Assembly (NCBI GenBank): GCA_963817895.1
Contig: CAWFQB010000004.1
Coordinates: 704,001 to 768,000 of the forward strand
Direction of reading: 5' to 3'
DNA from: an uncultured Chthonomonadaceae bacterium
GTDB taxonomy: Bacteria > Armatimonadota > Chthonomonadetes > Chthonomonadales > Chthonomonadaceae
DNA: 64,000 nt
Shown in pieces: positions 3,681-51,223 of this stretch. The position numbers and the translations under genes are program-made. Each line of letters opens with the position of its first letter. Within the stretch, counting starts at the first letter, position 1. Under the pieces are notes generated by a model. It worked only from the letters and a program-made list of their open reading frames with translations. It ran no database searches and was not told the origin of the DNA.

Positions 3681-3708
3681 CCGTCAGCGAAAGTTCTGCG
3701 CGAACAAT

Positions 3709-3744
3709 AAATCCGCCAGTCTTAACTATGAGACTGGCGGATTT
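3709..3744. terminator. Intrinsic terminator hairpin between convergent genes
   Basis: Perfect 14-bp inverted repeat AAATCCGCCAGTCT/AGACTGGCGGATTT. Confidence 0.75.
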
Positions 3745-3819
3745 CAGGTCTGGAATTCAAGAAGTTTTTAACCATGCTCGCTTATAGCATTTTCGAGTAG
3801 GCGGCAACCTGGGTCACTG

Positions 3820-4116
3820 TTAATACTCCTCGCCGCCCTCTTCGTTCATGTCTTCAAACTCCGTCTCTTCTTCCTCTTCTTCCATCGGGCCACCCGCGGT
3901 TCCCAGATCTTTGAGTTCGTCAAGATCGGCTCCGGCTGACAGACTGCGGCGTTCCGGCTCCGAATCCAGCAGGCCCATCGGGGTGGGGTGCTTTTGCCGC
4001 GCCTCGTCGCTGACAAACCGAACGTGAATTCCGGCCATCCACAACGGGATTTTTGGCATGGGCTTGCCCGTTTCCGAACACACCACTTCCATTACCGCTT
4101 CATCCGCTTTTCTCAT
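3820..4116 (-). CDS. Hypothetical protein with acidic C-terminus
   Basis: 98-aa ORF, GGAG RBS upstream, Glu-rich tail. Confidence 0.65.
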   Translation of the reverse strand: MRKADEAVMEVVCSETGKPMPKIPLWMAGIHVRFVSDEARQKHPTPMGLLDSEPERRSLSAGADLDELKDLGTAGGPMEEEEEETEFEDMNEEGGEEY

Positions 4117-4181
4117 AATATTTTCACTCCATTTTCCAAACAGTCGTTTCGTTGCGGGTTTGTTCGCAAACCATGCGTCTG

Positions 4182-4463
4182 TTAATGCGCGGCCTGTCCG
4201 CTTGCCTCTTCCACGTTTGCGCTCTCCGAAGTGGGCGCAGGCGTTTTACGCGCAGGCTCGGCGGGCGGAGGCGGGGCGATGCGAATGGACACGATGCCAT
4301 TGATAAGCATCAACACGCCCGCGCCGAGATAGACCAGCGACAGGTGATCTTGAGCCGATTGACCGGGTTCCATCAGGAAGTGGTCGTGTGTGGCAAATCC
4401 GGCAAGGCTGACGCCGATAAGGATCAGCCCGATGATAACAAACATGTTCAGGTAGCGCAACAT
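4182..4463 (-). CDS. Small two-TM membrane protein
   Basis: GAGGAG RBS before ATG 4463; two hydrophobic helices and a Pro/Ala tail. Confidence 0.65.
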   Translation of the reverse strand: MLRYLNMFVIIGLILIGVSLAGFATHDHFLMEPGQSAQDHLSLVYLGAGVLMLINGIVSIRIAPPPPAEPARKTPAPTSESANVEEASGQAAH

Positions 4464-4542
4464 AACCGCTCCTCGCCCACAGGCGCAAATAAGTTCCACC
4501 GTTCCTTTATTTCAAACGATGGTTTGAGTTATTATACCCCAA

Positions 4543-4626
4543 GTTAGGTTGTTAGGGTGTCAGGTTGTTAGTTGTTAGGAGGGCAATCAAAACTCTTTTC
4601 CTGACAACCTAACAACTAACAACCTG
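4543..4626. repeat. Short-tandem-repeat palindrome (GTTGTTA / TAACAAC arms)
   Basis: ggttgttagttgttagg ... cctaacaactaacaacc immediately downstream of the MurF-Alr gene. Confidence 0.7.
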
Positions 4627-4631
4627 TTTTC

Positions 4632-35426: not shown

Positions 35427-35556
35427 TCAAGGCTGCTATACGCTTCTGAATACTGCTTTCCACTGTTTTACAATGTCTTCGCGCCTTGACATTCCGCAAA
35501 CCGCCGGAAGTTGATAAGCGTGAAGACACAGGTTGTTTATAAAGTATTCGAGAAAC

Positions 35557-35874
35557 ATGAACGATAAAACCATCAAATTACTGCTTGCCGGAATTGTGTT
35601 GCTGCTATGTGGGATTGCGTGGCAGGTCGGTTTTGGGGCGCGGCCAGCACACGCGCAATCGGCGAATACTGGCGGGGTTCAGCCTGTCATGTCTACGGAC
35701 AAGCAATTTCTCTATATTCTGCGCGGCAATCAGTTATCTGTATACTTTATGGACAATGATATGATTGCGAAAGACCCTTCAAGCGTACTAACAGCTTTGA
35801 GTGGAGCGGGCAGGGAAAAATTGCTAAAAAGCTATAAACTTCGCAAACTTCTGACAACTGACGTGAGCCACTAA
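35557..35874 (+). CDS. Hypothetical secreted protein
   Basis: Hydrophobic N-terminus ending AHA-Q. Confidence 0.6.
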   Translation: MNDKTIKLLLAGIVLLLCGIAWQVGFGARPAHAQSANTGGVQPVMSTDKQFLYILRGNQLSVYFMDNDMIAKDPSSVLTALSGAGREKLLKSYKLRKLLTTDVSH

Positions 35875-36069
35875 ACCTCCCGCGAATATAACTGTCGCCT
35901 CGTATTTCAAGCGTATATGCCCAATAGCTTGAAGCGCGAGGCTATTTTTACAATCATCAAAATTTACAAGAATGGCTTTCCTCCTCTGTCGCGTTGAGGG
36001 TAGTGAAACAGCATAACCGTGAAATGCTGTTCTCACTTCTTAAAAGATGCTGATAGGAGGTAACATTCA

Positions 36070-37341
36070 ATGTCAACTATGGTGAAGGAAGCGCGTTACA
36101 TTCTGACGAGTCTGGAAAACAACAACAACAAGTTCTGGAACATCCGCCTGTTCGACGACCAAAGCTGTGAAACACAGTGGGGGCGCGTGGGCGAAAACGG
36201 GCAGAGCAAATCGTTCGCGGGCGCGAGCGAAACGCTGTTCAACAGCAAGTGCCGCGAAAAAGAGGGCAAGGGCTACAAACCCTCCAAAACGCTGGGCAAC
36301 GGCGCGTCGTCCAAGTCTATGGAAAACGACAAACTGGCCGATGCCGCCAAAGACCAGATTGTCACCAATTCGCCCGAAACGCTCGCGCTTGTCACGTACC
36401 TTGCCAAAACCAACGTTCACAGCATTTTGCAGGCCACGACCATGCAGTACGACACCACGCGGGGAACCTTCTCCACGCCGCTCGGCATCGTGACGGCGGA
36501 CGCGATTACCGAAGCGCGCGGCTTGCTGACCGACATCGGCAACTATGTGTACGCGCAGGATTACGGCAATACGTGCTTTGTGAAATCGCTCAACGATTAC
36601 CTGATGCTCGTGCCGCAGAACATCGGCAGGGGACGCCCCGACCCGAAAGTTCTCTATCCCAATCTGGAAGCGGTACAGGCGCAAAACAACATTCTGGACA
36701 GTCTGGAAGCCAGTCTGCAAACCATCCTGTCCGCGCCGCAGAACGAGGAACAGGCCCCATTGCCCAAAATGTTCGAGGCGACCCTGAACCTTGTCAACGC
36801 GGCAAAAGAGATCGAGCGCATCCGGGCGAAATACAAGGCGACCCTGCAATCCATGCACGCCTGCGCCCATCTGGATGTGAAGCGCGTGTTTTCGGTTGAG
36901 ATTGCCGCCATGCAGCGGGCATTCGTGGAGGGCAGCAAAGTGGGGAATGTGCAGGAACTCTGGCACGGCACGAAAGCCTCCAACCTGCTGTCCATTCTGA
37001 AAACCGGCTTTTACATTCCGCCCGGCAACGCGCCCTTTGTGACCGGCCGGATGTTCGGCCCAGGCTGCTATTTCAGCGACCAGTCCACCAAGTCCTTAAA
37101 TTACGCCTACGGCTACTGGGACGGCAAGCGGCAGGACAACTGTTATATGTTCCTGTGCGATGTGGCAATGGGCGTCTCCTACACGCCGCCCGGTCCCTCG
37201 CAAAGCCTGCCCAAACCCGGAAGCGACAGCACCTTTGCTATCGGCGGCAAGTCCGGCGTCGCCAACAACGAGATGATCGTGTACAACACCAACCAGATCA
37301 ATCCGACATTTTTGATTGAGTTCTCTCCGGCAGGAAAGTAG
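36070..37341 (+). CDS. WGR-domain poly(ADP-ribose) polymerase (WGR + helical regulatory + PARP catalytic)
   Basis: NNNKFW...QWGRVG (WGR); PLG and LNDYLMLVPQ (helical domain); LWHGT, GRMFGPGCYFSD, KSLNY, NNEMIVY (H-Y-E triad); AGGAGG RBS. Confidence 0.92.
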   Translation: MSTMVKEARYILTSLENNNNKFWNIRLFDDQSCETQWGRVGENGQSKSFAGASETLFNSKCREKEGKGYKPSKTLGNGASSKSMENDKLADAAKDQIVTNSPETLALVTYLAKTNVHSILQATTMQYDTTRGTFSTPLGIVTADAITEARGLLTDIGNYVYAQDYGNTCFVKSLNDYLMLVPQNIGRGRPDPKVLYPNLEAVQAQNNILDSLEASLQTILSAPQNEEQAPLPKMFEATLNLVNAAKEIERIRAKYKATLQSMHACAHLDVKRVFSVEIAAMQRAFVEGSKVGNVQELWHGTKASNLLSILKTGFYIPPGNAPFVTGRMFGPGCYFSDQSTKSLNYAYGYWDGKRQDNCYMFLCDVAMGVSYTPPGPSQSLPKPGSDSTFAIGGKSGVANNEMIVYNTNQINPTFLIEFSPAGK

Positions 37342-37406
37342 ACATCAGCCGGGGAATCTACTTGTAGTTCAACGTAATGCAATCCGCCTGAGTAAGGAGG
37401 CTTCCT

Positions 37407-38462
37407 ATGCGAAATGTCTGTAAGATAACGAGAAGACGGTTGGCAGTCATAGTAACGGGAGTGTTTCTGCTCGGTACGGGACACGCAGTTACCGCTGTGC
37501 AGGCACAGGACGAACCGGTGTTTACTCTGCGGGGGCATACCAACGCGGTTACGGCTGCCATGTATTCCCCGGATAACCAGCACATTCTCACCGGCAGTGG
37601 GGATGGTTCCTGCAAAATCTGGAATGCGCAAACCGGACGCGAGACAGAGACGTTTCGCGCCGATGAAGGCGGTGTTCTATGTGCAGTCTACTCTCCGGAT
37701 GGTAAGCATATTGCCACCGGAGGCGGCAGTCACACGGTGCGGATATGGGATGCTCACACCAAGAAGCGACTGCTCACCTTCACGGAACATATCGCGCAAG
37801 TCAATGTGGTGGCGTTCTCGCCGGATGGCAAGCGCATTGCCAGCGGCGCGGGGGGCGAACGGGTAGGAGAGGATGAACGGACGCTGATATGGGATGCCGA
37901 CACCGGCAAACTCCAACTCACCATTCAGGTAGGGGGATTTGGACTGCGCTCCCTCTCCTTCTCTCCCGATGGCAAGCGTCTGGCGATTTCGACGGAAGGA
38001 ATTCAGCCTCCTCATATCTGGGATGCCTACACGGGGCGCAAACTGGTGACGCTCAAGACTGCCAAGGATGATGGCATCCTGTGGATTACGTTCTCTCCCG
38101 ATGGTCGACAAGTGGCGACGGGCAATTGGAATGACACCGCCAACATCTGGAATGCGGTCACAGGTGAGAGGATACGCAACATGAAGGGACATACTGACTG
38201 GGTGATGGATGTGGCGTACTCCCCTGATGGGAAGCGCCTGGTGAGCGGCAGCATGACCCATGATAAAACCGCGCGCATATGGGACGTGGCAACCGGGCGG
38301 GAACTCCAGGTGTTGGTCGGGCATCAGAGTCATGCAGGATCTGTAGCTTTCTCTCCCGATGGCAAGCGCATCATTACAGGCAGCGGGCGAGCAGACAAGA
38401 CTGCGAAAGTGTGGGTAGTGCGCAATGCGCAACAAACTTCCGTGATTGCGCGACGGCCCTGA
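37407..38462 (+). CDS. Secreted WD40-repeat beta-propeller protein
   Basis: Signal peptide and about 7 GH...SPDG...WD repeats. Confidence 0.92.
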   Translation: MRNVCKITRRRLAVIVTGVFLLGTGHAVTAVQAQDEPVFTLRGHTNAVTAAMYSPDNQHILTGSGDGSCKIWNAQTGRETETFRADEGGVLCAVYSPDGKHIATGGGSHTVRIWDAHTKKRLLTFTEHIAQVNVVAFSPDGKRIASGAGGERVGEDERTLIWDADTGKLQLTIQVGGFGLRSLSFSPDGKRLAISTEGIQPPHIWDAYTGRKLVTLKTAKDDGILWITFSPDGRQVATGNWNDTANIWNAVTGERIRNMKGHTDWVMDVAYSPDGKRLVSGSMTHDKTARIWDVATGRELQVLVGHQSHAGSVAFSPDGKRIITGSGRADKTAKVWVVRNAQQTSVIARRP

Positions 38463-38483
38463 TGAACAAAAGCGCCTGCTTGA

Positions 38484-39611
38484 ATGACGCAAACCTTCAA
38501 CAGCGTCAACCAGAACACATTCGGCGGAACCGTTACATTCGACGCCAATGGCAACCCGCAATCGTGGAACGGCGCAGCCCTGACGTATGACGCCAACAAC
38601 AAACTCGTCAGCATTAGCACAGCGTTGACCGCAGGCTTTGGGCGCGACGGTTTGCGAGCATGGAAGCAGAACAGCGCAGGCACACGCGCGTACTTCCTCT
38701 ACGATGGGCTGGTTCCGGTTTGTGAACTCGACGGCAGCGGCAACGTCACCGCCGTCAACACAGTTGGTCCAACGGGAGTGCTGGCTCGGCATACAAATTG
38801 GGTTGGCGGCGGCAGCGTGTTCTACGCCTTTGACCCACAGGGCAGTGTTGCCGTTCGTCTGGATACGAGCGGAAACGTTCTCAGCAGCCATGTCAACGAG
38901 GCATGGGGTACACAGGTCAGCAGCGGAAGTGGGTACACGAGTGATCCTTATGCGGGCTATGGTGGGCAGTGGGGCTACTACCGGGATGTGGAAACCGGAC
39001 TGCATTTGCTCGGACACCGCTACTATGACGTGGCACAGGGAAGGTTTATCAACCGCGATCCTATCGGGTACAGAGGCGGCATTAACCTTTACGCTTACTG
39101 CGACAACAACCCGGTAGATGGGGCCGATCCAAGCGGGTTTTTGGCACCATCAGTGCCGATGCTGTGCCGGTTAGTCGTGTCTGGCGTGGCCGGAGCAGGC
39201 GAAGTGGGTGGGGCGGCAATTATTGGGCCAGGAATGGCTGCTGGCACAGCCGGTTGGTATATCGGTTCTCCCATAGGCAATTGGATTGCCAATAAGTGGT
39301 TTGGGCCGGAAGTGGACACGCCCGAGGCAGAAGAAGCCGATCAACCGACCTTCCCCAGCTATGGGAGCAAGCCCAAGCAGTATAGCCCGGACTGCATTAC
39401 GAATGGTTCTACACAAGATAATCCAACTTCGACGGCTTACAAAAATCTTCATCCAAGATGGAACCAAGACATTGAAAAAACGTGTGATGACCTCCGAGAG
39501 ATGAAAAAGGCTGCCAAGACCCCGGCGGAAAAGAACGAGATTAAGCAAGCGATGAAATTTATGGGCTGTGATGGTAAGGATAGAGGAGCAGGCGATGTCA
39601 GGCCCAAATAA
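38484..39611 (+). CDS. Orphan RHS-core protein with C-terminal putative toxin
   Basis: YD-like repeats; ETGLHLLGHRYYD...GRFINRDPIGYRGGINLYAYCDNNPVDGADPSG core, then about 155 aa of variable C-terminus; starts mid-repeat. Confidence 0.88.
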   Translation: MTQTFNSVNQNTFGGTVTFDANGNPQSWNGAALTYDANNKLVSISTALTAGFGRDGLRAWKQNSAGTRAYFLYDGLVPVCELDGSGNVTAVNTVGPTGVLARHTNWVGGGSVFYAFDPQGSVAVRLDTSGNVLSSHVNEAWGTQVSSGSGYTSDPYAGYGGQWGYYRDVETGLHLLGHRYYDVAQGRFINRDPIGYRGGINLYAYCDNNPVDGADPSGFLAPSVPMLCRLVVSGVAGAGEVGGAAIIGPGMAAGTAGWYIGSPIGNWIANKWFGPEVDTPEAEEADQPTFPSYGSKPKQYSPDCITNGSTQDNPTSTAYKNLHPRWNQDIEKTCDDLREMKKAAKTPAEKNEIKQAMKFMGCDGKDRGAGDVRPK

Positions 39612-39987
39612 TGAGGACATATACTACTGGTATGCAGCACACGTATTGCTGTACGTCGAATTTTTGGATAACATCCAAGACTACTATCTCGTGTGGGAAA
39701 ACATATGTTTGATTAAGGCAAGTTCAGTTGCCCAAGCCTACGAAAAAGCGGATAAATTAGGACTGGAACAAGAAGAATTTGACAAAGATAGCGGACATAC
39801 ATTAAATGGGCGACCTGTACGCTTTCATTTTGCAGGTATACGTAGGCTGGCTGAGTGTATAGATTTTGACGACGGCCCTGAAGACGGCAAAGAAGTTACT
39901 TATCTGGAATATTCCTTCAAAGACAAAGCGACCCTAGATGCGCTATTGGAACGGCGAGAAGCAGTTGTTGTTATGGAGGCAAAGTGA
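39595..39987 (+). CDS. DUF4288-like protein, probable RHS immunity
   Basis: Overlaps the toxin 3' end; acidic; WYAA...WENICLIKA...F.GIRRL...DGKEV pattern. Confidence 0.7.
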   Translation: MSGPNNEDIYYWYAAHVLLYVEFLDNIQDYYLVWENICLIKASSVAQAYEKADKLGLEQEEFDKDSGHTLNGRPVRFHFAGIRRLAECIDFDDGPEDGKEVTYLEYSFKDKATLDALLERREAVVVMEAK

Positions 39988-39993
39988 CCTGAG

Positions 39994-40222
39994 CCATACT
40001 ATGCTTACGATGGCAGAGGCTTGCCGTCGAGCGTGAGCAATCCTTCTGGCGAGACGTTCGGGTGGACGTATCTGGACAACGGCTGGCTATGGCAGCAGCA
40101 ATCCGGCAACGCAGAAACAGCCATATACACCTACAACGCGCTCGGACAGGTGACGGAACTTGCCCACCGGAAGAGCAGCAACAACGCCCTGCTTGCCGAC
40201 TTCGCCAACCTCAGCCATGACG
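39994..40222 (+). pseudogene. Second RHS-repeat fragment
   Basis: Reads YYAYDGRGLPSSVSNPSGETFGWTYLDNGWL...YTYNALGQVT with no core domain. Confidence 0.7.
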
Positions 40223-40241
40223 TCATTACCTTCAGCGCAAA

Positions 40242-41924
40242 TCAGTGCGGGTTCATAGTCATGCTGTACAACGTATCATCTTTGCTGAACAATGCCTGAG
40301 TGCCGTGCTTGAACAGTTTTGCGCCCTGTAGCGCGGCGTCGGTGAGGAGGTTCAGGCCAGTCGCGTGAAGGCGGTTCGAGAAAATTTCCAGTTCCTCGTT
40401 TTCGTTCAAGTGCAGGCAGATGCCGTTGTCCAGCGTGACGAAGTTCAATCCCGTGTATACAATGTCATCCATAATCCGCAGATCGTAAGCCGCATACGTG
40501 GCGTCGAAGCGCAGGATAAACTTGCTGTACGCGCCCCGTTTTTCTCCCACAAGCATTAACACGTTGTTGTCGAACTTGCCGTCCACGATCCGGAAGCCGT
40601 CCAGTTCCTTGATGCGAACCGAATGGCAAATTCCGGCGCGGGGAAACAGCGAAACATAAGTCGCGCCGAGCAGGTTTTGCGCCGCAACGCCCTCGAATAC
40701 CTGCGTCGCGTTGGGCAGAACGTTGGCGACTATTTTCAGGGCGGGCTGCGGGGCGGCAGGCAGTTCCAGAAACTCTACCTCGTATAATCCCATGCCGTTC
40801 TTGATGTACAGCCGATCTCCATACGTCGTAATGGCTTCCGCCGCCAGCGTGTTGAGAAGCGGTTTGTTCTGCATCACGTCGAAAAAGGACACGTTGCCAT
40901 CTTTCAAACTGACGGCAAGCAGCGTGTTCATGCGTGGCGTGAAGACGATACGCGCGTTGCTGTCGGGAACCAGAATTTTGCCGCGCAACGTTACGCCCTC
41001 CGCTGTCACCCCGCACAAACACCCTGCCTGCGGAACAGGCAGAACGAGCGAAGCCGGAAACGTTCCCAAAGCCCGAATTTGCAGTTTGTCGCTGCCCGTT
41101 ACGCGCTGAACGGTTGGCGTCAAAATCAGGGGCGCGTTCAGGTCGAACGGCGGGGCGCAGCGTTTGCCCTGCTCGAACACGGCCCTGTACCAGAACAGAT
41201 ACGCCTGCGGTATCGCGTCAAAAGCGTAGCACACTTTCGGCACGGACACAGCCGGATTCAACGCGCTGATATTCTGCATCATCCGCGCGTCCATATCGGC
41301 CAGCGTTGGATGCTTGCCCTTGTACGGATGGATTCCAATGAACATCTGGAAACTGACGATGCCAAACGAGAACCAATCGGTATCGGGCGTAAACTGATTG
41401 TTGTGGCAATGGCGGTCTCGAACGCTGTCCATCAAGGCAGTGGCTTTGAAACTCGGCGTCTGGTAACTGTCCACGTCAATAAACAAGACTTCGGCCAGTT
41501 TCGTGTCCAGCAGAAAATTCATCTCGTTCAGGTCTACAATCAACATGCCCTTGTCATGCACATGTTGTACGCCCGCTTGAAGTTTGCGCACGAGCGCGAG
41601 CATCGTGTCCGGCGATACGTTATTGCGATCCCGAAAGGCGCGGGTAAACGCCTGGCACAGCGAAACCGGGTCTTTCACGCGGGGCATGGTGTAGCCGATA
41701 GGCGTATTGCCCCTGTCCAGCAGCACGTCGCAGGGGCGTATAATCGTCGGCAGCGACAGCGCGGACAACTCCTGTATTTTGGCGACGGGAATCATTTTGC
41801 CCGCATCGGCATAGATTTTATACGCGGTATCCCCCTTCGCGTACACGGCCCCCTCGCCGCCCTGCGCCACAAAATCCCCCTGCCCAAGCCCGATTTTGCC
41901 TTTGCCCTTGATAAAAACATCCAT
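40242..41924 (-). CDS. Protein kinase-like protein (TerY-P-type) with beta-rich C-terminal region
   Basis: QGGEGAVY Gly loop, AYKIY, IVDLNEMN, FIDVDS, DWFSF...HPYKG; GGAGG RBS before ATG 41924. Confidence 0.88.
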   Translation of the reverse strand: MDVFIKGKGKIGLGQGDFVAQGGEGAVYAKGDTAYKIYADAGKMIPVAKIQELSALSLPTIIRPCDVLLDRGNTPIGYTMPRVKDPVSLCQAFTRAFRDRNNVSPDTMLALVRKLQAGVQHVHDKGMLIVDLNEMNFLLDTKLAEVLFIDVDSYQTPSFKATALMDSVRDRHCHNNQFTPDTDWFSFGIVSFQMFIGIHPYKGKHPTLADMDARMMQNISALNPAVSVPKVCYAFDAIPQAYLFWYRAVFEQGKRCAPPFDLNAPLILTPTVQRVTGSDKLQIRALGTFPASLVLPVPQAGCLCGVTAEGVTLRGKILVPDSNARIVFTPRMNTLLAVSLKDGNVSFFDVMQNKPLLNTLAAEAITTYGDRLYIKNGMGLYEVEFLELPAAPQPALKIVANVLPNATQVFEGVAAQNLLGATYVSLFPRAGICHSVRIKELDGFRIVDGKFDNNVLMLVGEKRGAYSKFILRFDATYAAYDLRIMDDIVYTGLNFVTLDNGICLHLNENEELEIFSNRLHATGLNLLTDAALQGAKLFKHGTQALFSKDDTLYSMTMNPH

Positions 41925-41937
41925 AGTTGCCTCCGGC

Positions 41938-42040
41938 AAAGGATGAAGGATGAAGGATGAAAAGCAACCCTGTTTATCCTCTTTGCTATCTCGGCAAACT
42001 TAGGAATGAACAGGCATTGACTTCATCCTTCATCCTTAAT
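41938..42040. repeat. GGATGAA heptamer palindrome
   Basis: (AGGATGA)n ... (TTCATCC)n across the PP2C-kinase junction. Confidence 0.75.
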
Positions 42041-42930
42041 CCATGCATAATTACTCCCATCGCAACATCGTCATGGTGCTGCCAGCCGCGTGACGCGCAC
42101 TGCTGCTGAAACTTTTGCATCCGGCGCTGCGCGAATTGTCCGCCACTCGTTTTGAAGTTCAGCAGTTCCGGCAGGACGGTTTCAAGCGGCAGAGCGGTAT
42201 TGGCGCGTCCTGCGCCCGGTTCCGTCGTGTAGAAGGAGTGAACGCCGTCGGACAGGATTGCCACCCACCAGTAATCCGCAATACTGCCGGTCACAAACGA
42301 GCAGGGATCGTCTGCCGCGCAAATTTCGCTGTGTTTTGCTGTTACCAAACCCCACGAATTTATACAAAATGTCTCAATCTGTCGCGTACTCTCTGCCTGC
42401 TGTAAGAGAACCTGCCGCCGCGCGTCATCGGCAAGATAGTTGGGGTAAAAGGGATAGCCGCCGGGATAGGATACAACGGTCACTTCCATCTCTCCCGCCC
42501 GATTTTGCGCTGCCACAACGCCATCCCCGAACACGGACGCCAGCCATTGTAATTCGCCTGCAATCAGCGTCAGCAGGGTTGCATCACAGGCCGTATCGGA
42601 CAATTGCAGCGATGCGGCGTAACTTCTGGCGGCGCATATCGCTTGTTGATGGTAGTAAAGCAGGTTGCCCTCAACCCCCGGCCCCTTCTCCCAAAAAAGC
42701 CTGGGAGAAGGGGAGTTCTGAGTGGAAGTTGCGCCTTCCGATTGTGAACTGTTGGCAATGTGTGCTAGCGCGGAACGCGCTAGCAGGCGCGCTCCAATAT
42801 CCGTATTCGGCGAACCGGAACAGCCATCTGCCAGCACGACGCAGGGAAACTCTCCTGTCGCCACCGCCGCATAATCCTGACAGACCAGATGCGTCTTGCC
42901 CATCCGAAACGCGCAATCTACGTGTACCAT
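41986..42930 (-). CDS. PP2C-like protein phosphatase
   Basis: GKTHLVCQDY, LADGCSGS, ILSDGV, HDD; GGAGG RBS before ATG 42930. The ORF track fuses it to the vWA gene through frameshifts. Confidence 0.88.
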   Translation of the reverse strand: MVHVDCAFRMGKTHLVCQDYAAVATGEFPCVVLADGCSGSPNTDIGARLLARSALAHIANSSQSEGATSTQNSPSPRLFWEKGPGVEGNLLYYHQQAICAARSYAASLQLSDTACDATLLTLIAGELQWLASVFGDGVVAAQNRAGEMEVTVVSYPGGYPFYPNYLADDARRQVLLQQAESTRQIETFCINSWGLVTAKHSEICAADDPCSFVTGSIADYWWVAILSDGVHSFYTTEPGAGRANTALPLETVLPELLNFKTSGGQFAQRRMQKFQQQCASRGWQHHDDVAMGVIMHGLRMKDEVNACSFLSLPR

Positions 42931-42943
42931 TACCACACCTCCA

Positions 42944-43078
42944 AAAACGACTAAACCACGGGGGACACGGGGAACACGGGAGAGGAGAAAAGGGAGGAAA
43001 ATATCCGAACACATCATTGTTTGTCTCTTCCCTATCCTGCCCCCGTGTTCCCCGTGTCCCCCGTGGTTTAGTCGTTTT
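42944..43078. repeat. 37-bp perfect inverted repeat between the vWA and PP2C genes
   Basis: AAAACGACTAAACCACGGGGGACACGGGGAACACGGG at 42944-42980 and its reverse complement at 43042-43078. Confidence 0.9.
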
Positions 43079-43079
43079 G

Positions 43080-43824
43080 TCAGAACGTCAGGATTTTCGA
43101 GGAGCCGCCGCTGCCCAGCGCCTTGCTTTGCGCGGAGATGCTGCGCGAAACGAAGTCCGCGAGTTTCGCGAGGGCTTTCGCGTCGGCCTTGTCCAGTTCG
43201 ACGTACTGCGTGAACCGGCCTCGTTCTTGAAGTCCTGCAGGTACGCGCCGATGTTCGGGTCCTGCACGTTGACGCCGATGAGAATGGAAATCGAGCGATT
43301 CCAGCGCTTCGGTTTGAACCGCGCCTGTCAGGGCGTCGCGCACATTGCGAACGGTCAGCTTGGAAGCGTTGTCTTCGCCATCCGTGATGACGAACACGAT
43401 GCCGTTGGTGGCGAAATCCGCCGTCCGTCAGTTGCTTGCCATAGGTGGACACAGCGGAAATGGCGTTTTCCGCCGCGTCGTACAGCGCCGTGCCGCCATA
43501 CGTTTTGATGATCTTCTTGTAGTCGCTCAGATTGCACTGTTCCAGCAGTTTGAAGCCGTGCGCTTCGGTCATGCCCGTCGCAAACGTGACAAGGCGGATC
43601 ATCAGGTTGTCGGCGCGGGGCGAAAACTTACACGCTTTGACGATCTCCACAAGGCAGTTTTCCATCTCTTTGACAAACCCGCTCACGCTTGGCGAAGCGT
43701 CGCAGACAATGGTGACAAGCGTGTATTCGGTTGCGCCCAGATCGTCCAGGCGGGTGGCGGAAAAGCCGTATTGCCCGGAAGGCAGCGCGTGTTGCTGCAA
43801 AGTGGCGTCGTTGAAAATAGGCAT
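43080..43824 (-). CDS. TerY-like vWA domain protein (frameshifted)
   Basis: MIDAS DASPS, GGTALYDA and FVITDGEDNAS spread over shifted frames; ends SGGSSKILTF. Confidence 0.85.
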
Positions 43825-43841
43825 TGGTTTGCTCCTATATA

Positions 43842-43934
43842 GGTGTTCGGGGTTCGGTGTTCGGATAGTAGCCTGCTCACGTTAAAGCTTGCGTGGAACT
43901 CTTGCATTGTTCCGAACACCGAACACCGAACACC
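43842..43934. repeat. CCGAACA heptamer palindrome
   Basis: GGTGTTCGG... and (CCGAACA)3 arms between the nicotinamidase and vWA genes; the same heptamer occurs x4 at 45041-45073. Confidence 0.75.
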
Positions 43935-44737
43935 TATGCCAGAAAGTCTCTCGTATTGCTGATCTGCATGCCCCGCGCTTTCATCTCTTTGATGAAGTCG
44001 GTCTGGAACGGCTCGAAGCCGGGAACGGGACTGGTCGCGTCTTCCAGCAGAACCAGCCGCTTCACGTAGCTGTCATCGCCGAAGTTGTTGGCAACGTCGC
44101 GAACCGTGTTGGCAAGGCAGTGGCTGCCCGCTTCTCCGGCAATGGCAACGATGTCGGCGTCCAGCAGCGTCTTGATGAAGGCCGTATTGATCTGTGTGCC
44201 GGGATCGGACGGGTCGGGCACGTCGGCCACAATCGCGCTGTAGTGTTCCGTCCACGGATTCGAGCCTTTGGTCACGTAATCCACCATCGCGAACCGCTGC
44301 TGTTCCCAGCATTGCAGCGCCTGATGCAGTTCCGGCACGACGCAGTGACCGGGCGAACCGATCAGGCAGTGGGGCGGCCAGATGCACAGCGGGTAGCGGC
44401 CATTGGCTTCCAGCGTCTGCACATACGCCAGCATCCGCTTCATCATGCTGGGCAGCACGGGCGTCCATCTCCCGTTTTCCACATCCTTTGCCGTGATGAT
44501 GGTGAACGGCGCGGGCGCGCGTCCCGTCGAATCCTTCCAGAAAATCGGATGCGCCACATCAATCAGGCGGTGCGAGTCCAGCGTGACGTGAATATCGTCG
44601 AGTTTCGTGGACAGGCGATTCACCATGCGGGCCAGCCGCGTCATATCGGTTTCCGCGCCCTTCACATACAGCGCGCCGCGCGGGTCGCAAAAATCAACCT
44701 GCGGGTCAATCACAACCAGATGTACTGATTTTGCCAT
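43934..44737 (-). CDS. Nicotinamidase-like cysteine hydrolase (isochorismatase family, PncA-like)
   Basis: IDPQVDF (Asp), TLDSH and WPPHC (metal site), VTKG (Lys), GEAGSHCL (Cys); GGAGG RBS. Confidence 0.85.
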   Translation of the reverse strand: MAKSVHLVVIDPQVDFCDPRGALYVKGAETDMTRLARMVNRLSTKLDDIHVTLDSHRLIDVAHPIFWKDSTGRAPAPFTIITAKDVENGRWTPVLPSMMKRMLAYVQTLEANGRYPLCIWPPHCLIGSPGHCVVPELHQALQCWEQQRFAMVDYVTKGSNPWTEHYSAIVADVPDPSDPGTQINTAFIKTLLDADIVAIAGEAGSHCLANTVRDVANNFGDDSYVKRLVLLEDATSPVPGFEPFQTDFIKEMKARGMQISNTRDFLA

Positions 44738-44789
44738 CGTAGCCTCCTCTAATCTATTCGAACCTGCTTCATTAGCGGATTCTGATAAG

Positions 44790-44843
44790 AGTATAGGGAG
44801 GGCGCGTGACGGCTGCGTGACAAAACAGCCCTGTTTGCGTGAA
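44790..44843 (-). promoter_or_regulatory. Putative SARP-type promoter of the nicotinamidase-vWA-PP2C-kinase operon
   Basis: Minus strand reads TGTCACG-cagc-CGTCACG-N9-TATACT; a third imperfect copy lies 22 bp upstream (44837-44843). Confidence 0.6.
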
Positions 44844-45019
44844 CAAGAAAAGGGTACAGACATTCCTGTGCCGGGTGTTGAAAAGCACCCGGCAGGAAAG
44901 TGCAAGCGTCCGGCGGACGCGGCACTTTATTCAAGACTCCCGCGTCCGAAGGACGCTTGTTTTGTCCAGACAGGGATTTTCAATCCCTGGCACCAGGAAG
45001 CGGGTACAATGATACAGCA

Positions 45020-48000
45020 ATGACGAACATCGAATTCTTAACACCGAACACCGAACACCGAACACCGAACACCAAATTTGTCCTGAACCTGTTCGGGGCG
45101 TTCGAGTCGTATGTGGACGGCAAGCCCCTGCCGCCGCTGCGAACGGTGAAGGGCAAACATCTGCTTGGATTGCTGGCATTGCGGGCGGGGCAGGAGGTAT
45201 CGCGTCAGTGGCTTGCAGAAACGCTCTGGCCGGACAGCGAAACGCCCTCGGATAGTCTGCGGCAAAGCCTGTCGGACTTGCGGCAGAAGATGGGCGAACA
45301 GGCATTTCGATTGGAAGCCCCCGCAAAATCAACCCTGCGCCTGAATTGCGAGAACGCGGCTATTGATGTAATCGCGTTTGACAGGGCTATGAAGCGGGGG
45401 ACGCGGAAGAATGGCGCTACGCGATAGGATTGTATCGGGGCGATTTGCTGGAGGGCGTGGGCGAAGTGTGGGTACTGCCGGAGCGGGAAACGCGGCGGCA
45501 GGCGTATCTCAAAGCGTTAGAAACGCTTGCCGCGCAGTCCCATGTTGACGGCGATATGCAGGCTGAAATCGCGTATCTGCGCCGAACGCTCGCGAGCGAT
45601 CCCTGCCGCGAAACCGCCGCCCGCAACGTTATGACTGCGCTGGAAAAAGCGGGCGAACCGCAGGCCGCGCTGGACGTGTACCATCTATTGCGTCAGCGGC
45701 TTCAGGAAGACGGAAACGCCATTCCCAAATCCGAAACGCGGGCTTTGTATCAGCGGATATTGAAACGCGGTAATGGCATAGCGAAGAACGGCAAAGCCGG
45801 TAAACCGCCTGCTTTGAACGCTGCTTCCACGCCCGCGCCGGAATGGTTGATACATTCGTCCTCATTAGCGGATGGCGGCAATATGCCCCTCGCGCTCACT
45901 CCTCTGATCGGGCGCGACATGCTGCTGCGCGAAATTGAAACGCGCGTTCTCACGCATCCGCTTGTAACGCTGGCGGGAACCGGGGGCGTGGGCAAAACGC
46001 GATTGGCGACACAGGCGGCGCAGGAACTGAAGGCCACGTTTGATGAGGGCGTCTGGTTTGTAGATTTATCCGCCGCTGTTCCTCCGGCGCAGGTCGCGCA
46101 GGAAATTGCCCGCGTCTTCGGCATACGGACGGAAACCGGGAACAACGTTGGGGAGGTCATTTCCGGCGCGTTGCGTCCGCGCCATCTGCTGCTCGTGCTG
46201 GACAACTGCGAAACCTGCCTGCAAGCGGCGGCAAGCATGGCGCAGGAGCTGCTTCGCGCCTGCCCGCATTTGCGATTGCTGGCGACAAGCCGCGAGCGAT
46301 TGGGATTGTCGGGTGAATTTGTTGTGAGCGTAAAGCCGCTGGAAATCCCCTCGGTTGTGTCTCAGGAATTGGCTGAAAAGTATTTGCTGAGTTTGCGGAA
46401 TGTGCCTTCGGTTCGTCTGTTTGTGGAGCGGGGGCAGGCCGCGCGGGATGATTTTGCGCTGACAGCAGACAACGCGCCCTTCGTTGCGGAAATTTGTCGG
46501 CGTCTGGATGGCCTGCCGCTCGCGCTGGAACTGGCAGGACCATTGCTGCAACTCCTGACGCCGCAGGAGATCGTCGCAAAACTAAATCAACGCTTTGCTC
46601 TGCTGACGGAGGAGGGGGGATTGCGCCCCACGCGCCACCAGTCCCTTCATGCCGTGATCGCTTCCAGCGTAGACCTGCTGCCCGAACCGGAGCGTATCCT
46701 GCTGCGCCGTCTGAGCGTCTTCGTCGGCGGCTGGACTCTGGACGCGGCAGAAGCGATTGCAAAGGATGAAGGCGGAAGGATGAAGGATGAAGAGAGGGAA
46801 CAGGGAACAGGGAACAGGGAACAGTTCTCCTCAATACCCAATACCCAACACCCAATACCTGTTTCATCCTTCATCCTTCATCCTTCCGCCTTTGCCTCCC
46901 TGCGTAGCCTTGTCGCCAAATCCCTCGTTGTGGCGGAGGAGTGGAACGGGCAGATGCGGTATCGGATGCTGGAATCCATACGGGAATTTGCGGCGAAAAT
47001 GCTGATAGAAGCGGGGGAAACAGCGGCCTTGCGCGTCCGGCATCTGGAGTGGATGCTGCATACGGCGCGGCAGGCGGAACCGGAACTGACCGGAGCGCGT
47101 CAGGCCGTGTGGCTGGAACGGCTGGAAGTGGAAACGGGCAACCTGCGCCACGCGCTGGATTGGGCGGAACACGACCCGCAGAGTCGCGGGCAGGGACTTG
47201 AACTGGCGAACGCATTGGGACGTTACTGGCAGATACGGGGCCATTTCGCGGAGGGGCGGGAGCGGCTTTCAAGATTGCTGGATGCGCCGGAAACACGGAA
47301 ACTAACGGGTCTTCGCGCCAACGCGCTGAACTGGCTTGCGTTGTTGAGCGTGTTTGTGGGCGATCTGGAGGGCGCGGAAACCGCGTGTCGCGCCGGGTTG
47401 ACGCTATGGGAACAGCAGGGTGAGGGCCGGGGCGCGGCGGGTTCGCTGGGTATTTTGGGAATCATTGCCGCCAATCGCGGCGATTATGGGAGCGCGGAAA
47501 AGTGGTATCGGCAGGCGCTGGAGGGCGCGCGGAGTGTGGGGGATCAGCACGGCGAAGCGGGAACCCTCGGCTACCTGGGCATCAACGCCGTAAATCAGGG
47601 GTATTATGAGGAGGCGCGGCAGTGTTATGAGGCCAGTCTGCGATTGCGCCGCGCCTTAAACGACGTGTGGGGTATTGCCGCCTGCCTGAACAATTTAGGA
47701 CAGCTTGCCCGCAAAAATGGCGAATTGCAACGCGCCCGCGAACTGCTTTCCGAATCCCTGATTTTGCGGCGCGAGTTGCGCGACCGCCGCAATGTCGGCA
47801 TAACCCTTAACGTCCTCGCTTTGCTTGCGTGGGAACAGAATAACTTACAGGAAGCCTCCGCCTGCCTGCTGGAAGCGACAGATTTGTTCGACCAACTCGG
47901 CGACCGCCGCAGCCTCGCCTACGCGCTGGAAGCGTGGGCGCGTATCGCCGCGAGGTCAGGCGAGGCCGAACGCGCCAGAGGATTGTACAAAGCGGCGAAA

Positions 48001-48195
48001 CATCTGAGAGAAAAAATAGGTTCGCCCCTTCCCCCTGCCGAACAAACCGAACTGGAACGCTGTTTCCTCCCCGCGCCTTCCGCCGGAAACGTGGATAACG
48101 AAATTCCGCGTAACCATCAGGAACCCTGGACGCTGGAACGCGCGCTTGCCGAAGCAAGAGCAATCGGCATGGAACGCAAATTCGTGTCGCGATAA
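45020..48195 (+). CDS. SARP/AfsR-like regulator (wHTH-BTAD + NB-ARC-like ATPase + TPR), frameshift near 45410
   Basis: LFGAF...SRQWLAETLWPD, YRGDLLEG, GTGGVGKT, LLVLDNCE, GLPLALEL, multiple TPRs. Confidence 0.9.
46761..46893. repeat. Nested heptamer-repeat palindrome inserted in frame in the regulator gene
   Basis: GGATGAA arms enclosing (GGGAACA)4 and (AATACCC)n; translates as KDEGGRMKDEEREQGTGNREQ...SSFILHPSAF. Confidence 0.85.
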
Positions 48196-48233
48196 AACCT
48201 CAAGAGCCAAAAAAATAAATTTCGGGGGGCATA

Positions 48234-49400
48234 ATGCCTGTCATCAATAATCTGCTCGACTCAGATTTGTACAAACTTACAATGCTGCAAGTGGTGTGGC
48301 ATCGTTATCCGCATGTGGATGTGGAGTATCAGTTTCGCTGCCGCAGCAAGAATGTGGATTTGCGGCCCTACGCGGACGAGATACGCGAGGAGATTAACGC
48401 CTTTTGCAAGTTGACGTTTACCGGAGAAGAACTGGCGTACCTGAAAACCATCCGCTATCTCAAACCAGGTTTCGTGGACTCGCTGTTTGAAGTCCGCCTG
48501 AACCCTTCCGACGTGGAGATTACCGCGACGGATGAGTTTCGCCTGACCATTAAAGGCCACTGGGCGCGTACGATATTGTTTGAAGTGCCGGTTCTTGCCA
48601 TCATCAACGAGGTATATTTCCGGCATACGCAGCCCGACGCGCCCGCCACAAACCCCTCCGGCATGGAGCGGCTGTATGAGAAATGCAGGCAGATAAACGA
48701 GTCGGATGTACCCCTGCGCATTTGCGAATTTGGAACACGGCGGCGGTACAGTGGCGAGTGGCAGTTGAAAGTAATCGAGACTTTGAAGGAGCGTATCGGC
48801 GACTCGCTGGTGGGAACAAGCAATGTGGCGGCGGCGCGGAAATTCGGCATCACGCCGTTCGGCACGATGGCGCACGAATTTTTGCAGGCGTTTCAGGCGT
48901 TTACCGCGCTGCCGGATTTCCAGAAAGCCGCTCTGGAAGCGTGGATGCAGGAGTACCGGGGCGATTTGGGTATCGCGCTTTCCGACGTGGTAGGCATGGA
49001 CGCCTTTTTGCGAGATTTCGACCTGCTGTTCAGCAAAGCCTACGACGGCTGCCGCCACGATTCCGGCGACCCGGTAGAGTGGGGCGAGAAACTGCTGACG
49101 CACTACGCCGATAAGAAGATTGATGCCCGAACGAAAACCATCACGTTCAGCGACGCCTTGGACATACCCAAAGCCATAATGTTGGCCCGCCATTTTCAGG
49201 GGCGTATCCGCGTCAACTTCGGCATCGGAACCAACCTGACCAACGATTTCGACTTTGACCCGCTGCAAATCGTCATCAAAATGACGCGCTGCAATGGTCG
49301 CCCCGTCGCCAAACTCAGCGACTCCCCCGGCAAACTGATGTCTAATGATGAAGTGTTTCTGGCGTATTTACGGCAAGTATTTCTAATCCAAATGGACTAA
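48234..49400 (+). CDS. pncB: Nicotinate phosphoribosyltransferase
   Basis: LLDSDLYKLTM, EFGTRRR, GTSNV, GTMAHE, RHDSGDP, FSD, FGIGTNLTND, KLSDSPGK. Confidence 0.96.
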   Translation: MPVINNLLDSDLYKLTMLQVVWHRYPHVDVEYQFRCRSKNVDLRPYADEIREEINAFCKLTFTGEELAYLKTIRYLKPGFVDSLFEVRLNPSDVEITATDEFRLTIKGHWARTILFEVPVLAIINEVYFRHTQPDAPATNPSGMERLYEKCRQINESDVPLRICEFGTRRRYSGEWQLKVIETLKERIGDSLVGTSNVAAARKFGITPFGTMAHEFLQAFQAFTALPDFQKAALEAWMQEYRGDLGIALSDVVGMDAFLRDFDLLFSKAYDGCRHDSGDPVEWGEKLLTHYADKKIDARTKTITFSDALDIPKAIMLARHFQGRIRVNFGIGTNLTNDFDFDPLQIVIKMTRCNGRPVAKLSDSPGKLMSNDEVFLAYLRQVFLIQMD

Positions 49401-50015
49401 ACCGCGCCGGATAGCGGCGGTGACGGCCTGAGTGCGGTCATTTACTTTCATTTTGTCGAGGATGCTGTTGACGTGGGCCTTGACGGTTCCCTCCGCGATA
49501 AACAGCGCGTTCGCGATCTCCTGATTGCTGTTGCCGCCCACCATCAGGCGCAAAACTTCCACTTCGCGAGGCGTAAGCGGCGATTGGCTGATGCGCGACG
49601 CCAGTTTTACGGCGACGGGAGAGGGGATGTGCGTTTGCCCGTTGTGGACGGCGCGGATAGTTTCCAGCAGCTCCTCGCGGGGCGCGTCCTTGAGCAGATA
49701 CCCTTTCGCCCCCGCCTGCAAGCCCCGGTAAATGTCCTCTTCGCCGTCGTAAGTGGTCAGCACGATGATGCGGGCATCCGGCGCTTCCTGCCGAATCTGG
49801 GAAATAGCGGTTACGCCGTCCATCTGCGGCATCCGTAAATCCATCAAAACAATATCGGGGCGATGCTGGCGGAACAAATCAACGGCCTCTACGCCATTGC
49901 CCGCCTGCGCCACTGTCATCATGTCCTCCCGGCGGTCAATGATGGACGCCAGACCTTCGCGCACGACAGGATGATCGTCCGTGATAAGGACTCGGATACT
50001 GGTAGAGGGTTTCAT
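49383..50015 (-). CDS. NarL/LuxR family response regulator
   Basis: Receiver domain plus LTPREVEVL...TVKAHV HTH. Confidence 0.95.
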   Translation of the reverse strand: MKPSTSIRVLITDDHPVVREGLASIIDRREDMMTVAQAGNGVEAVDLFRQHRPDIVLMDLRMPQMDGVTAISQIRQEAPDARIIVLTTYDGEEDIYRGLQAGAKGYLLKDAPREELLETIRAVHNGQTHIPSPVAVKLASRISQSPLTPREVEVLRLMVGGNSNQEIANALFIAEGTVKAHVNSILDKMKVNDRTQAVTAAIRRGLVHLD

Positions 50016-51223
50016 GGCTGTTCATTGATCCTTTCACCCGGTTCAACAGAGGTGTGCAACGCTTCCACAGTAGCGCGATGTTTGTTGTCGTCAGAAATGG
50101 GAAGGGTGACGCGCACCCGCGTTCCCTGTCCCGGCGCGGTATCAATTTCAACTTCGCCGCCCAGTCGCCGCGCCCGCTCTTTGATTCCCATCAATCCAAA
50201 ACCGTGCATGTTTATTTGATGAGGGTCAAAGCCGCGCCCATCGTCGCGTATGGAAAGCTCGATCTGAGTGGGCGCGAACACAAGTTTCAGCGTGACGTGA
50301 TCGGCCTGCGCATGTTTGAGGCAGTTTGTCAGGGCTTCCTGACCGATACGCAGCAGGTCGGTTTCATCTTCGGCTGGCAGAGGAAAGGCAACTCCCTCCA
50401 GAATAAACTCTGCCTGCAAGGTTGTGCCGTGCGTAATCTGATGGGCGCACTGTTCCAGCGCGGCCTGCAAATCGTGGGCATCCAGCGCCTGGGGACGGAG
50501 GGCGCGCACGGAACGCCGCGCTTCCGCAAGGCTTTCATGGGCCAGTTGTTTTGCCCGCGCGATATGATGAATCACCTGTTCCGGGGACGTGTTCAGCGCG
50601 TCCTCGGCGGCCTCCATCTGAATGGCGATACCGGTCAATCCCTGCGCCAGCGTGTCGTGGATTTCGCGCGCGATGCGGTTGCGCTCCTCCAGAATTCCCG
50701 CCTGCCGCTCCTGTTCCATCAGCAGCCGGACATCCTCGTGATGCTGCTGCTCGGCCACTTTGCTGGAGGTCATATCCCGCAGGATTTTTACGAAACCGCG
50801 AAAATGCCCCTCTGTATCGCGCAGGCCGGTCATAATGCCGCTTGCCCAGAAGCGTGTGCCGTCCTTGCGCAGATGCCACCGCTCATCCTGACAATGCCCG
50901 ATCTCCCGCGCCGTTACGCGCTCATGCTCTACTGCCCCGCACGCTATATCTTCGGGAATAAACAGACACATGCAGTCCATGCCGATAGCTTCCGCTTCGG
51001 AATAGCCCATAATGCGTTGCGCGCCCACATTCCAACTGGAAATGCGTCCATCGGGCGCGACGACGAAAATAGCGAAATCCCGCACATTCTCTTCAATCAG
51101 GCGAAGACGCTCTTCGGCATGAATTGAGAGCTGAAGATAGGCTTCGGCATCGGAAGGCGGGCTGCCGGAGGCGGGTAGCGAGTCCAATGGTTGTAGCGTA
51201 CTGGTATGGTGCTGGTCTGTCAT
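50012..51223 (-). CDS. PAS-domain histidine kinase (HisKA_3)
   Basis: PAS/PAC, ERNRIAREIHDTLAQG, DDGRGF, GFGLMG; ATGA overlap with the response regulator gene. Confidence 0.93.
   Translation of the reverse strand: MTDQHHTSTLQPLDSLPASGSPPSDAEAYLQLSIHAEERLRLIEENVRDFAIFVVAPDGRISSWNVGAQRIMGYSEAEAIGMDCMCLFIPEDIACGAVEHERVTAREIGHCQDERWHLRKDGTRFWASGIMTGLRDTEGHFRGFVKILRDMTSSKVAEQQHHEDVRLLMEQERQAGILEERNRIAREIHDTLAQGLTGIAIQMEAAEDALNTSPEQVIHHIARAKQLAHESLAEARRSVRALRPQALDAHDLQAALEQCAHQITHGTTLQAEFILEGVAFPLPAEDETDLLRIGQEALTNCLKHAQADHVTLKLVFAPTQIELSIRDDGRGFDPHQINMHGFGLMGIKERARRLGGEVEIDTAPGQGTRVRVTLPISDDNKHRATVEALHTSVEPGERINEQP

Follow-up and report, generated by a model that had tools for sequence, protein, structure and literature searches.

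Introduction

What does a phosphorylation module of the TerY-P type do beside a nicotinamidase? The question is raised by a locus at positions 36070 to 49400 of a 64,000-nucleotide stretch of DNA, here called the window, from an uncultured Chthonomonadaceae bacterium of the phylum Armatimonadota (assembly GCA_963817895.1, contig CAWFQB010000004.1, positions 704,001 to 768,000). An operon for a long nicotinamidase, a von Willebrand factor A (vWA) protein, a PP2C-type phosphatase and a Ser/Thr kinase lies there between a PARP gene and a divergent SARP-STAND regulator gene, which is followed by pncB. A first-pass annotation of the letters alone named these genes, their order, their orientation and the 38-bp gap between regulator and pncB, all of which the open reading frame list and family scans confirm. 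It went on to propose a six-part defense system, which is unsupported: the full six-part combination is met in this genus only, and the conserved unit is the four-gene cassette. We present the cassette as a widespread variant of TerY-P that is linked with NAD+ salvage and seems not to have been described before. The reading we favor, at a probability of about 0.55 and from sequence, is that the locus salvages nicotinamide on induction: the SARP-STAND protein would activate the unit, which would carry a phosphorylation switch of its own. The window genome (G000) is 81% complete, and the two other genomes of the genus, G001 and G002, are 97% and 91% complete.

The conserved cassette and its neighbors

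With a 31-row alignment of the kinase as query, 185,579 species genomes yielded 137 stretches and the viral contigs 101. For locus counts, 80 cellular and 80 viral stretches were taken with 10 kb flanks, and exclusion of loci under 15 kb and of near-duplicates gave 38 cellular and 58 viral loci. The complete cassette of nicotinamidase, vWA, PP2C and kinase is found in 29 of the 38 and 55 of the 58 (44/80 and 59/65 at all locus lengths), and its constant element, nicotinamidase together with vWA, in 36/38 and 55/58. A PncB, NadD, NadE, Prs or NrtR-like gene lies within 10 kb at 27 of the cellular and 38 of the viral loci; NrtR-like genes adjoin the cassette in 18 of the 38 cellular loci by a profile that may also pick up plain Nudix genes. 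Phage loci anchored on the nicotinamidase have PncB in 21 of 63 cases versus 4 of 118 control loci anchored on Thg1 or RNA ligase (p = 7e-8), and NadE in 17/63 versus 5/118 of the same controls (p = 2e-5); the loci are not independent, and kinship inflates these p values. The cassette and neighbor counts bear out, well beyond this locus, the tie between the vWA-PP2C-kinase triad and NAD+ salvage that had been suggested from the window.

Among 401 Armatimonadota genomes, the nicotinamidase is present in 24 of the 25 with the kinase, the kinase is absent from 32 of the 56 with the nicotinamidase, and pncB stands beside the nicotinamidase in 17 of 20 triad-less loci. Because of this asymmetry, the sequence record presents the triad as an optional companion of a salvage nicotinamidase. 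The 41 genomes of the order include 8 with this nicotinamidase, 9 with pncB and 6 with PARP. A metagenome scan with the single kinase as query gave 3 loci. In a kinase tree without a true root, the window kinase groups with cellular rows from Armatimonadota and Acidobacteriota, in a clade of 43 rows. Many of the Acidobacteriota cassettes have a 740-aa methyltransferase-domain gene after the kinase (L042, L045, L048, L050-L055, L061, L062; 13 of 80 cellular loci). Four loci filed as cellular (L047, L069, L070, L073) have kinases that group with viral rows or have phage-like neighbors, and are possibly misbinned large-phage contigs.

Proteins of the cassette and PncB

The first cassette gene (43934-44737, minus strand) encodes the long, PncA-like nicotinamidase of 267 aa. 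Its model has a pLDDT score of 95.6, and nicotinamidases fill all of the eleven top Foldseek rows, the best at E = 1.7e-15. The protein has the Asp-Lys-Cys triad and the Asp/His/His metal site of PncA on an isochorismatase fold. Asp11, Lys157 and Cys207, which we take to be catalytic from PncA chemistry and from the alignment, and Asp54, His56 and His123, presumably the metal ligands on the same grounds, are 99-100% conserved in 94 sequences. It scores under the curated cut-offs of PF00857 and PRK11609 because of insertions. Two residues past Lys157 lies Ser159, conserved in 97% of cassette enzymes versus 45% of triad-less ones, 7 of 29 of which have Glu there; this is the largest drop among the 69 positions conserved at 90% or more in cassette enzymes. 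Ser159 is a candidate phosphorylation target, and a lead only.

The second gene (43080-43824, minus strand; 247 aa in a congener) encodes a TerY-like vWA protein with the MIDAS residues Asp42-x-Ser-x-Ser46, Thr112 and Asp148 and a Ser-rich, conserved C-terminus. It scores 96.5% in hhalign (E = 8.4e-10) against a canonical Pfam VWA/TerY-type protein of the window genome, and by profile comparison the cassette kinase is likewise homologous to the kinase of the canonical TerY-type pair elsewhere in that genome. At C13:37907-41502 (L618) of G000 there is a second, canonical TerY-type vWA beside a kinase-WD40-FKBP fusion, with no PP2C seen adjoining. The cassette phosphatase (41986-42930, minus strand; PF13672 over cut-off) has all the metal-binding aspartates, with Asp19, Asp35, Asp228 and Asp287/288 conserved at 99-100% in 112 sequences. 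The prediction of a nicotinamidase-vWA complex from congener sequences with 63-row alignments scored 0.00, and speaks neither for nor against one.

The last gene (40242-41924, minus strand) encodes a YegI-type Ser/Thr kinase of 560 aa (PF00069). Lys36, Asp131, Asn136 and Asp150 are 99-100% conserved in 141 sequences, and a YegI-like D-x-D-S takes the place of DFG. The full-length model (pLDDT 89.8, predicted template modeling score 0.61) has its top Foldseek rows to LRRK2 and LRRK1 kinase-WD40 chains, and its C-terminal part is about 290 all-beta residues with no conserved cysteine set. The model thus suggests that the C-terminal half of the kinase is probably a beta-propeller. A wide fold search with residues 1-264 returned kinase-domain matches only, the best at Z = 17.9 with a root-mean-square deviation of 3.9 over 237 aligned residues.

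The pncB gene (48234-49400, plus strand; TIGR01514 and PRK05321 over cut-off) encodes nicotinate phosphoribosyltransferase, starts 38 bp after the regulator and is probably co-transcribed with it. The window genome also encodes de novo NadA, plus NadD and Prs. Since pncB is patchy in the order (9/41 genomes) and the genome has NadA, the gene does not belong to the core, even though the window genome has no second copy of it. Catalytic and metal residues are conserved in all five enzymes of the locus.

Promoter repeats and the SARP-STAND regulator

The regulator gene (45020-48195, plus strand) is divergent from the cassette. Pfam and NCBIfam give its product the domain order of large SARPs, wHTH(OmpR-type)-BTAD-NB-ARC-TPR, across one frameshift; the frames are intact in the congeners. 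By pattern match, a SARP-type cassette promoter is predicted at 44790-44843 (minus strand). Three GTCACGC-like heptamers stand in direct repeat at 44837-44843, 44815-44821 and 44804-44810, with spacers of 15 and 4 bp, and the third is followed by 8 bp and a TATACT -10 box (44790-44795), 5' of the nicotinamidase. At published SARP activator sites the heptamers are separated by 4 and 15 bp, and 8-9 bp lie between the last of them and the -10 box (PMC10972967, PMC11301090). The window has by pattern what a large-SARP target has: heptameric direct repeats of 11-bp period over the -35 region.

The same layout is present in L020, L021, L022 and L033 and degenerate in L023, the last spacer being 9 bp in the relatives. 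An 11-bp double repeat is found 5' of 5 of 128 nicotinamidase genes, with a degenerate copy at a sixth, and is unmatched in the 122 others. The six box-bearing cassettes are all in the seven-row kinase clade of the window, of which they are the members with upstream DNA. Because the box is confined to these six nearest cassettes of 128, the activator of the cassette operon is probably encoded by the divergent SARP-STAND gene. The full pattern of repeat plus -10 box occurs at seven sites in the window genome and at none in 1.5 Mb of simulated sequence, and 3 of the 7 are within 1.5 kb of a SARP start, such zones making up 1.2% of the genome; the bare double repeat occurs at chance frequency (48 observed versus 45). 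The repeat was not seen upstream of any of 20 other SARP DNA-binding-domain matches from relatives. The six further full-pattern sites of G000 are C5:511089, C5:517364, C10:71130, C10:73257, C5:863222 and C1:1629438, and by eye several of them precede genes of secreted type or with a prepilin motif, which may together form one class of SARP regulon.

The cassette-adjacent regulators of four genomes, together with a copy from G011, form one 5-row NB-ARC clade with a Shimodaira-Hasegawa-like approximate likelihood ratio (SH-aLRT) support of 98 in a 56-row quick tree. NrtR (Nudix plus wHTH, PF21906) was not found in G000, G001 or G002 at their 81%, 97% and 91% completeness. We consider it likely that in this lineage the SARP-STAND protein has taken the place of NrtR, a repressor that senses ADP-ribose, and that the SARP-STAND protein binds the repeats and activates the operon on a signal. 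The suggestion of the first-pass annotation that the regulator switches the operon stands to the extent that the promoter repeats make activation probable.

Carriage by phages and the defense question

The cassette is not confined to bacteria. The phage records LR745208.1, LR756500.1 and LR756511.1, 462-595 kb in size, hold both kinase and nicotinamidase; a nicotinamidase search gave 299 viral stretches, and most parts of the kinase tree include viral rows. The cassette is present in 6 of 44 phage PncB loci. PADLOC-DB 2.0 (2023) gave generic kinase, TPR and WD40 matches only, newer systems being outside that library. No ter or restriction/DNA-processing genes were found among 54 neighbor-cluster representatives scanned for 160 loci, a scan that rarer neighbors fall outside. 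The idea that the locus serves anti-phage defense is not sustained by these results: the PADLOC hits are generic, very large phage genomes often carry the cassette themselves, and within the genus the locus is passed on stably between ordinary flanks.

PARP and other ADP-ribosylation genes

The PARP gene (36070-37341, plus strand) is convergent to the cassette as its own transcription unit. It encodes WGR, a regulatory helix domain (PARP_reg, below cut-off) and a PARP domain with the triad His299-Tyr334-Glu401, and it is without the SARP-type repeat upstream. An inverted repeat in its leader (36000-36045) is kept in one congener (L020) and not in the other. The WGR-PARP clade is frequent in the Armatimonadota: counted together with the paralogue type, it is present in 38 of 401 genomes. 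Twelve Armatimonadota genomes hold both PARP and kinase, and the two are adjacent in 3, all of this genus; in two closed genomes they are 0.18 and 2.0 Mb apart, and in the remaining seven they are on different contigs. Within families their co-occurrence is near expectation (4 versus 2.3, 5 versus 4.5).

For phages, a PARP-anchored linkage test was circular, the query having contained cassette-linked PARPs, and the nicotinamidase-anchored count was used instead. It finds PARP within 10 kb at 5 of 63 nicotinamidase loci versus 2 of 118 controls (p = 0.05). The triad is in 4 of 21 PARP-anchored phage loci, and these 4 include relatives of the sequences that built the query; a nicotinamidase is somewhere in 11 of 32 PARP-bearing viral records, a count with no control set. 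PARP adjacency is found in two separate parts of the kinase tree. The claim that PARP is a member of the system is weakly supported: it is adjacent in this genus and a few phages, and its convergent orientation, the missing repeat, adjacency in only 3 of 12 genomes and the borderline p value in phages speak against it. We regard PARP as a recurring, optional neighbor with a weak link to the cassette, not as a fixed part.

Genes for PARG, NADAR, ARG, PARP or Macro/OGFr-like proteins lie within 10 kb at 12 of 38 cellular and 16 of 58 viral loci. In L024, L025, L034, L035 and L271 an intact-looking ADP-ribosylglycohydrolase with DD motifs sits between vWA and kinase, in the PP2C slot; in L024 and L025 it is preceded by NADAR. 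L023 (G011) has a TIR-domain gene divergent from the cassette (1-989) and an SPFH gene plus one further gene inserted between vWA and PP2C (3054-4960). A search for microbial PARG in G000 and G001 found none. At C6:73089-74474 G000 encodes another, distantly related WGR-PARP paralogue of 28% identity, and both congeners have it too. After the phage WGR-PARP, 16 of 21 distinct loci have a gene of about 208 aa (L144:2114-2737 and relatives), a possible PARP partner, for which there was no Pfam or usable Atlas match and which was not found in G000.

Synteny, inserted block and assembly state

The order of PARP, convergent kinase, PP2C, vWA and nicotinamidase, divergent SARP and pncB is preserved in both congeners, as are the flanking DUF1501 and response-regulator genes, so the locus is stably inherited in the genus among ordinary conserved genes. 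A response regulator pair sits just past pncB in the window. Between PARP and kinase, the family scans assign a block of four plus-strand genes: a WD40 protein with a signal-peptide-like start (37407-38462), an RHS core with a C-terminal extension (38484-39611), a DUF4288 protein of low GC content (0.43; 39598-39987) and an RHS fragment that overlaps the kinase end (40021-40299). This block (37407..40299) is missing from both congeners, where the PARP-kinase spacing is 55 bp and about 1.2 kb. It is therefore a recent insertion outside the system, as had been supposed when the locus was first annotated.

Single-base indels, which the first-pass annotation did not mention, interrupt two reading frames of the locus: that of vWA at three places, near 43422, 43293 and 43214, and that of the regulator at one, near 45397. 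The assembly is prone to indels: tested against the two congeners, 34 of 143 orthologues of the window genome have frame changes, 0.30 per kb. Mismatches of the vWA gene to its congener number 55 at third versus 20 at first or second codon positions, opposite indels are found at 43214, 43293 and 43423 on contigs of related organisms, and the vWA-length and regulator frames are intact in both congeners. On these grounds the frameshifts look like assembly errors, and the genes look intact in the organism. Against this, three breaks in 0.74 kb of vWA are above the average rate (Poisson p = 0.0015), although other genes in the 143-orthologue comparison also have three, and no read set of the window strain was found among sequencing runs, the best share being 0.08 and from distant relatives only, and no RNA run turned up.

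Dispersed palindromic and short tandem repeats typical of the window genome lie at 44880-44990, 42944-43078, 43845-43933, 45030-45075 and 46760-46900, some of them within the PP2C and regulator reading frames. A conserved RNA at 44880-44990, a high-depth stretch, was considered and rejected: the stretch is a dispersed palindromic repeat, for which contig C4 by itself gives up to about 70 overlapping hits, and it is absent from congener spacers. An Rfam scan of 35000-50500 with E up to 1 gave nothing at gathering score, its hits being hairpin repeats.

Proposed mechanism and alternatives

In the reading we favor, a signal would be read by the TPR/NB-ARC part of the SARP-STAND protein, which would then bind the direct repeats over the -35 region and activate the four-gene operon. 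The long PncA, as sequence, fold and context suggest, would turn nicotinamide into nicotinate, PncB would make nicotinate mononucleotide, and housekeeping NadD and NadE would complete the route to NAD+. The kinase may phosphorylate the nicotinamidase, with Ser159 as the candidate site, or the Ser-rich vWA tail; PP2C would reverse this, the vWA protein would serve as adaptor, and the phospho-switch would set salvage flux while NAD+ is consumed. We put forward this assignment of kinase target, reversal, adaptor and flux switch as tentative, and on balance the odds are against it. PARP may be one of the NAD+ consumers; that it is functionally coupled to the cassette is doubtful to the same degree. 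Huge phages would carry the cassette probably to keep NAD+ up during infection. The boldest form of the idea is unlikely when taken whole: an NLR-like STAND activator in a non-actinobacterial host would sense infection or DNA damage and induce an NAD+-rescue operon, the kinase would gate the nicotinamidase beside its catalytic lysine and buffer the NAD+ use of PARP, and in huge phages the cassette, gated by phosphorylation in the same way, would provide a fourth route of NAD+ reconstitution, a deamidating one, against NADase defenses.

Several observations weigh against the salvage unit with its switch and activator. Most Ser159 changes are in one old triad-less clade, and recent triad-less copies retain Ser; three nicotinamidases of full cassettes have Val or Asp at position 159, and 2 of the 29 "solo" nicotinamidase rows still have a vWA or kinase match nearby. 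A plain on/off switch does not account for the several cassettes without PP2C, nor for the five in which the ADP-ribosylglycohydrolase takes its place. Both congeners have NadE, but the search of the 81%-complete window assembly did not find it. As to the regulator, the four-row clade of cassette-adjacent copies alone has a support of only 80, the same repeat lies beside three other SARPs of the window genome, so that a paralogue could act instead, and G129 and G011 have the box with no SARP found beside it. G117 has box and SARP plus an NrtR, and its best match to the window regulator is not its cassette-adjacent copy.

The PP2C-slot substitution leads to a different account, in which the triad is co-regulated with salvage and acts on another target, for example a protein that is ADP-ribosylated, or an enzyme that writes or erases ADP-ribose. 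Nicotinamide inhibits PARPs and sirtuins, and the cassette would then be an ADP-ribosylation stress response in which PncA removes this inhibitor. The glycohydrolase of the five loci, the ADP-ribose-related neighbors counted above and the PARP adjacency in two parts of the kinase tree fit this account, but those enzymes are rarer neighbors than salvage genes and vary by locus, the nicotinamidase-vWA pair is the constant element, and Ser159 relaxes on triad loss; we hold it unlikely. The six-part defense against phages or DNA damage, with the STAND sensor triggering PARP activity and a phospho-toggle, would draw on the homology of the triad to TerY-P, some forms of which are anti-phage, on the intact PARP catalytic residues and PARP adjacency in all three genus genomes, and on the TIR-domain gene divergent from the G011 cassette. 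It is quite improbable given the generic PADLOC hits, a PARP that is unlinked in 9 of 12 genomes with both and co-occurs within families near expectation, PARP-anchored phage loci with the triad (4/21) that include query relatives, a cassette frequent in phages themselves, and flanks of conserved ordinary genes.

Phage carriage itself could mean that the cassette is mainly a phage counter-defense module, a deamidating NAD+ reconstitution beside NARP1-3, of which the bacterial copies are captured relics. With similar search patterns, the 101 viral stretches stand against 137 from all the species genomes, besides the 299 viral nicotinamidase stretches, the carriage by phage records of up to 595 kb and the wide spread of viral rows in the kinase tree. 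The window kinase, however, belongs to the 43-row cellular clade with host-type regulation, in that tree without a true root, and most phage PncB loci are without the cassette; a phage origin of this kind is improbable. The promoter repeats, for their part, might be Pho boxes read by a PhoB/PhoP-type regulator, with the SARP gene a chance neighbor in a genome with about 30 SARP starts. Pho boxes likewise have an 11-bp period, and a response regulator pair lies just past pncB. AfsR and PhoP moreover share sites in Streptomyces (PMC10972967). Yet the other six sites precede, by eye, prepilin-motif or secreted-type genes and none an evident phosphate gene, five of the six have a SARP/STAND gene no more than about 7 kb away, and all four SARP-proximal repeats point away from the SARP gene, which leaves Pho boxes very improbable. 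A PstS search for the comparison gave no match.

Relation to known systems and significance

Some TerY-P forms are anti-phage (PMC11090510, citing Gao 2020). Like TerY-P (E. coli YegL-PphC-YegI; CoCoNuT-associated and stand-alone anti-phage forms), the cassette has a MIDAS vWA, a PP2C and a YegI-type kinase with D-x-D-S in one operon; unlike it, the cassette has a fixed nicotinamidase partner, and NAD salvage neighbors instead of tellurite or restriction genes. The C-terminus of the TerY-P kinase is a Zn ribbon in the CoCoNuT form or an OB fold in the anti-phage form (PMC11090510), and the window kinase is soluble, without YegI's membrane spans, and has an all-beta end that probably is neither of these. 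YegI has the DSD motif, and its physiological substrate is stated as open in the accessible text (bioRxiv 10.1101/819920). A description of the cassette was not found in the literature searched, whose coverage did not take in the original TerY-P paper (Anantharaman 2012), and neither vWA, PP2C nor TerY was met in the supplements searched, those of PMC9503650 and PMC11662467.

NrtR-controlled pncA-pncB(-nadD-nadE) regulons (Rodionov 2008, PMC2330246) concern the same pathway, and NrtR-like genes stand by the 18 cellular cassettes counted above. Those regulons, in the accessible part of that paper, list no vWA, phosphatase or protein kinase, and the window genus has the SARP-STAND protein instead, with no NrtR found. 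The regulator shares with the large SARPs AfsR, PolY and RslR3 the DBD-BTAD-NB-ARC-TPR layout and repeat spacing, and differs from them in its Armatimonadota host, in a target of NAD salvage versus antibiotic synthesis, and in the heptamer GTCACGC. The PARP has the three domains and H-Y-E triad of the bacterial WGR-PARP_reg-PARP proteins of Herpetosiphon and C. difficile CD160 (PMC5966428), unlike which its clade is common in Armatimonadota and large phages.

NARP1 and NARP2 reportedly consist of the gene pairs Adps-Namat and Nampt-Nmnat, and the accessible description of NARP3 gives PnuC-NadR; none of these pairs is found in the window. NARP1-3 are there described as amidated routes, unlike the deamidating route of PncA and PncB in the window. 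Large phages with pncA, pncB, nadE and PARP have already been reported from sequence as "NAD-jumbo phages" (PMC11662467, PMC13464706), and "kinase" and "von Willebrand" do not occur in the accessible text of PMC11662467, where the triad is not described. With the phage Preiss-Handler genes and PARP already reported, what is new here is the SARP-type triple direct repeat at the cassette promoter, in a genus without detected NrtR.

The regulator swap, from NrtR to a sensor-type activator, would be lineage-specific, and the predicted binding site would be the first concrete target for the large SARP-STAND family of Armatimonadota. Since the triad nearly always accompanies one enzyme that can be assayed, the TerY-P substrate question can be put to the test with four purified proteins and one identified serine. 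The cassette connects the salvage of NAD+, over which phages and bacteria contend, in bacteria with that in huge phages. It suggests a control point in NAD+ rebuilding that has not been described before, and not a proven anti-phage weapon.

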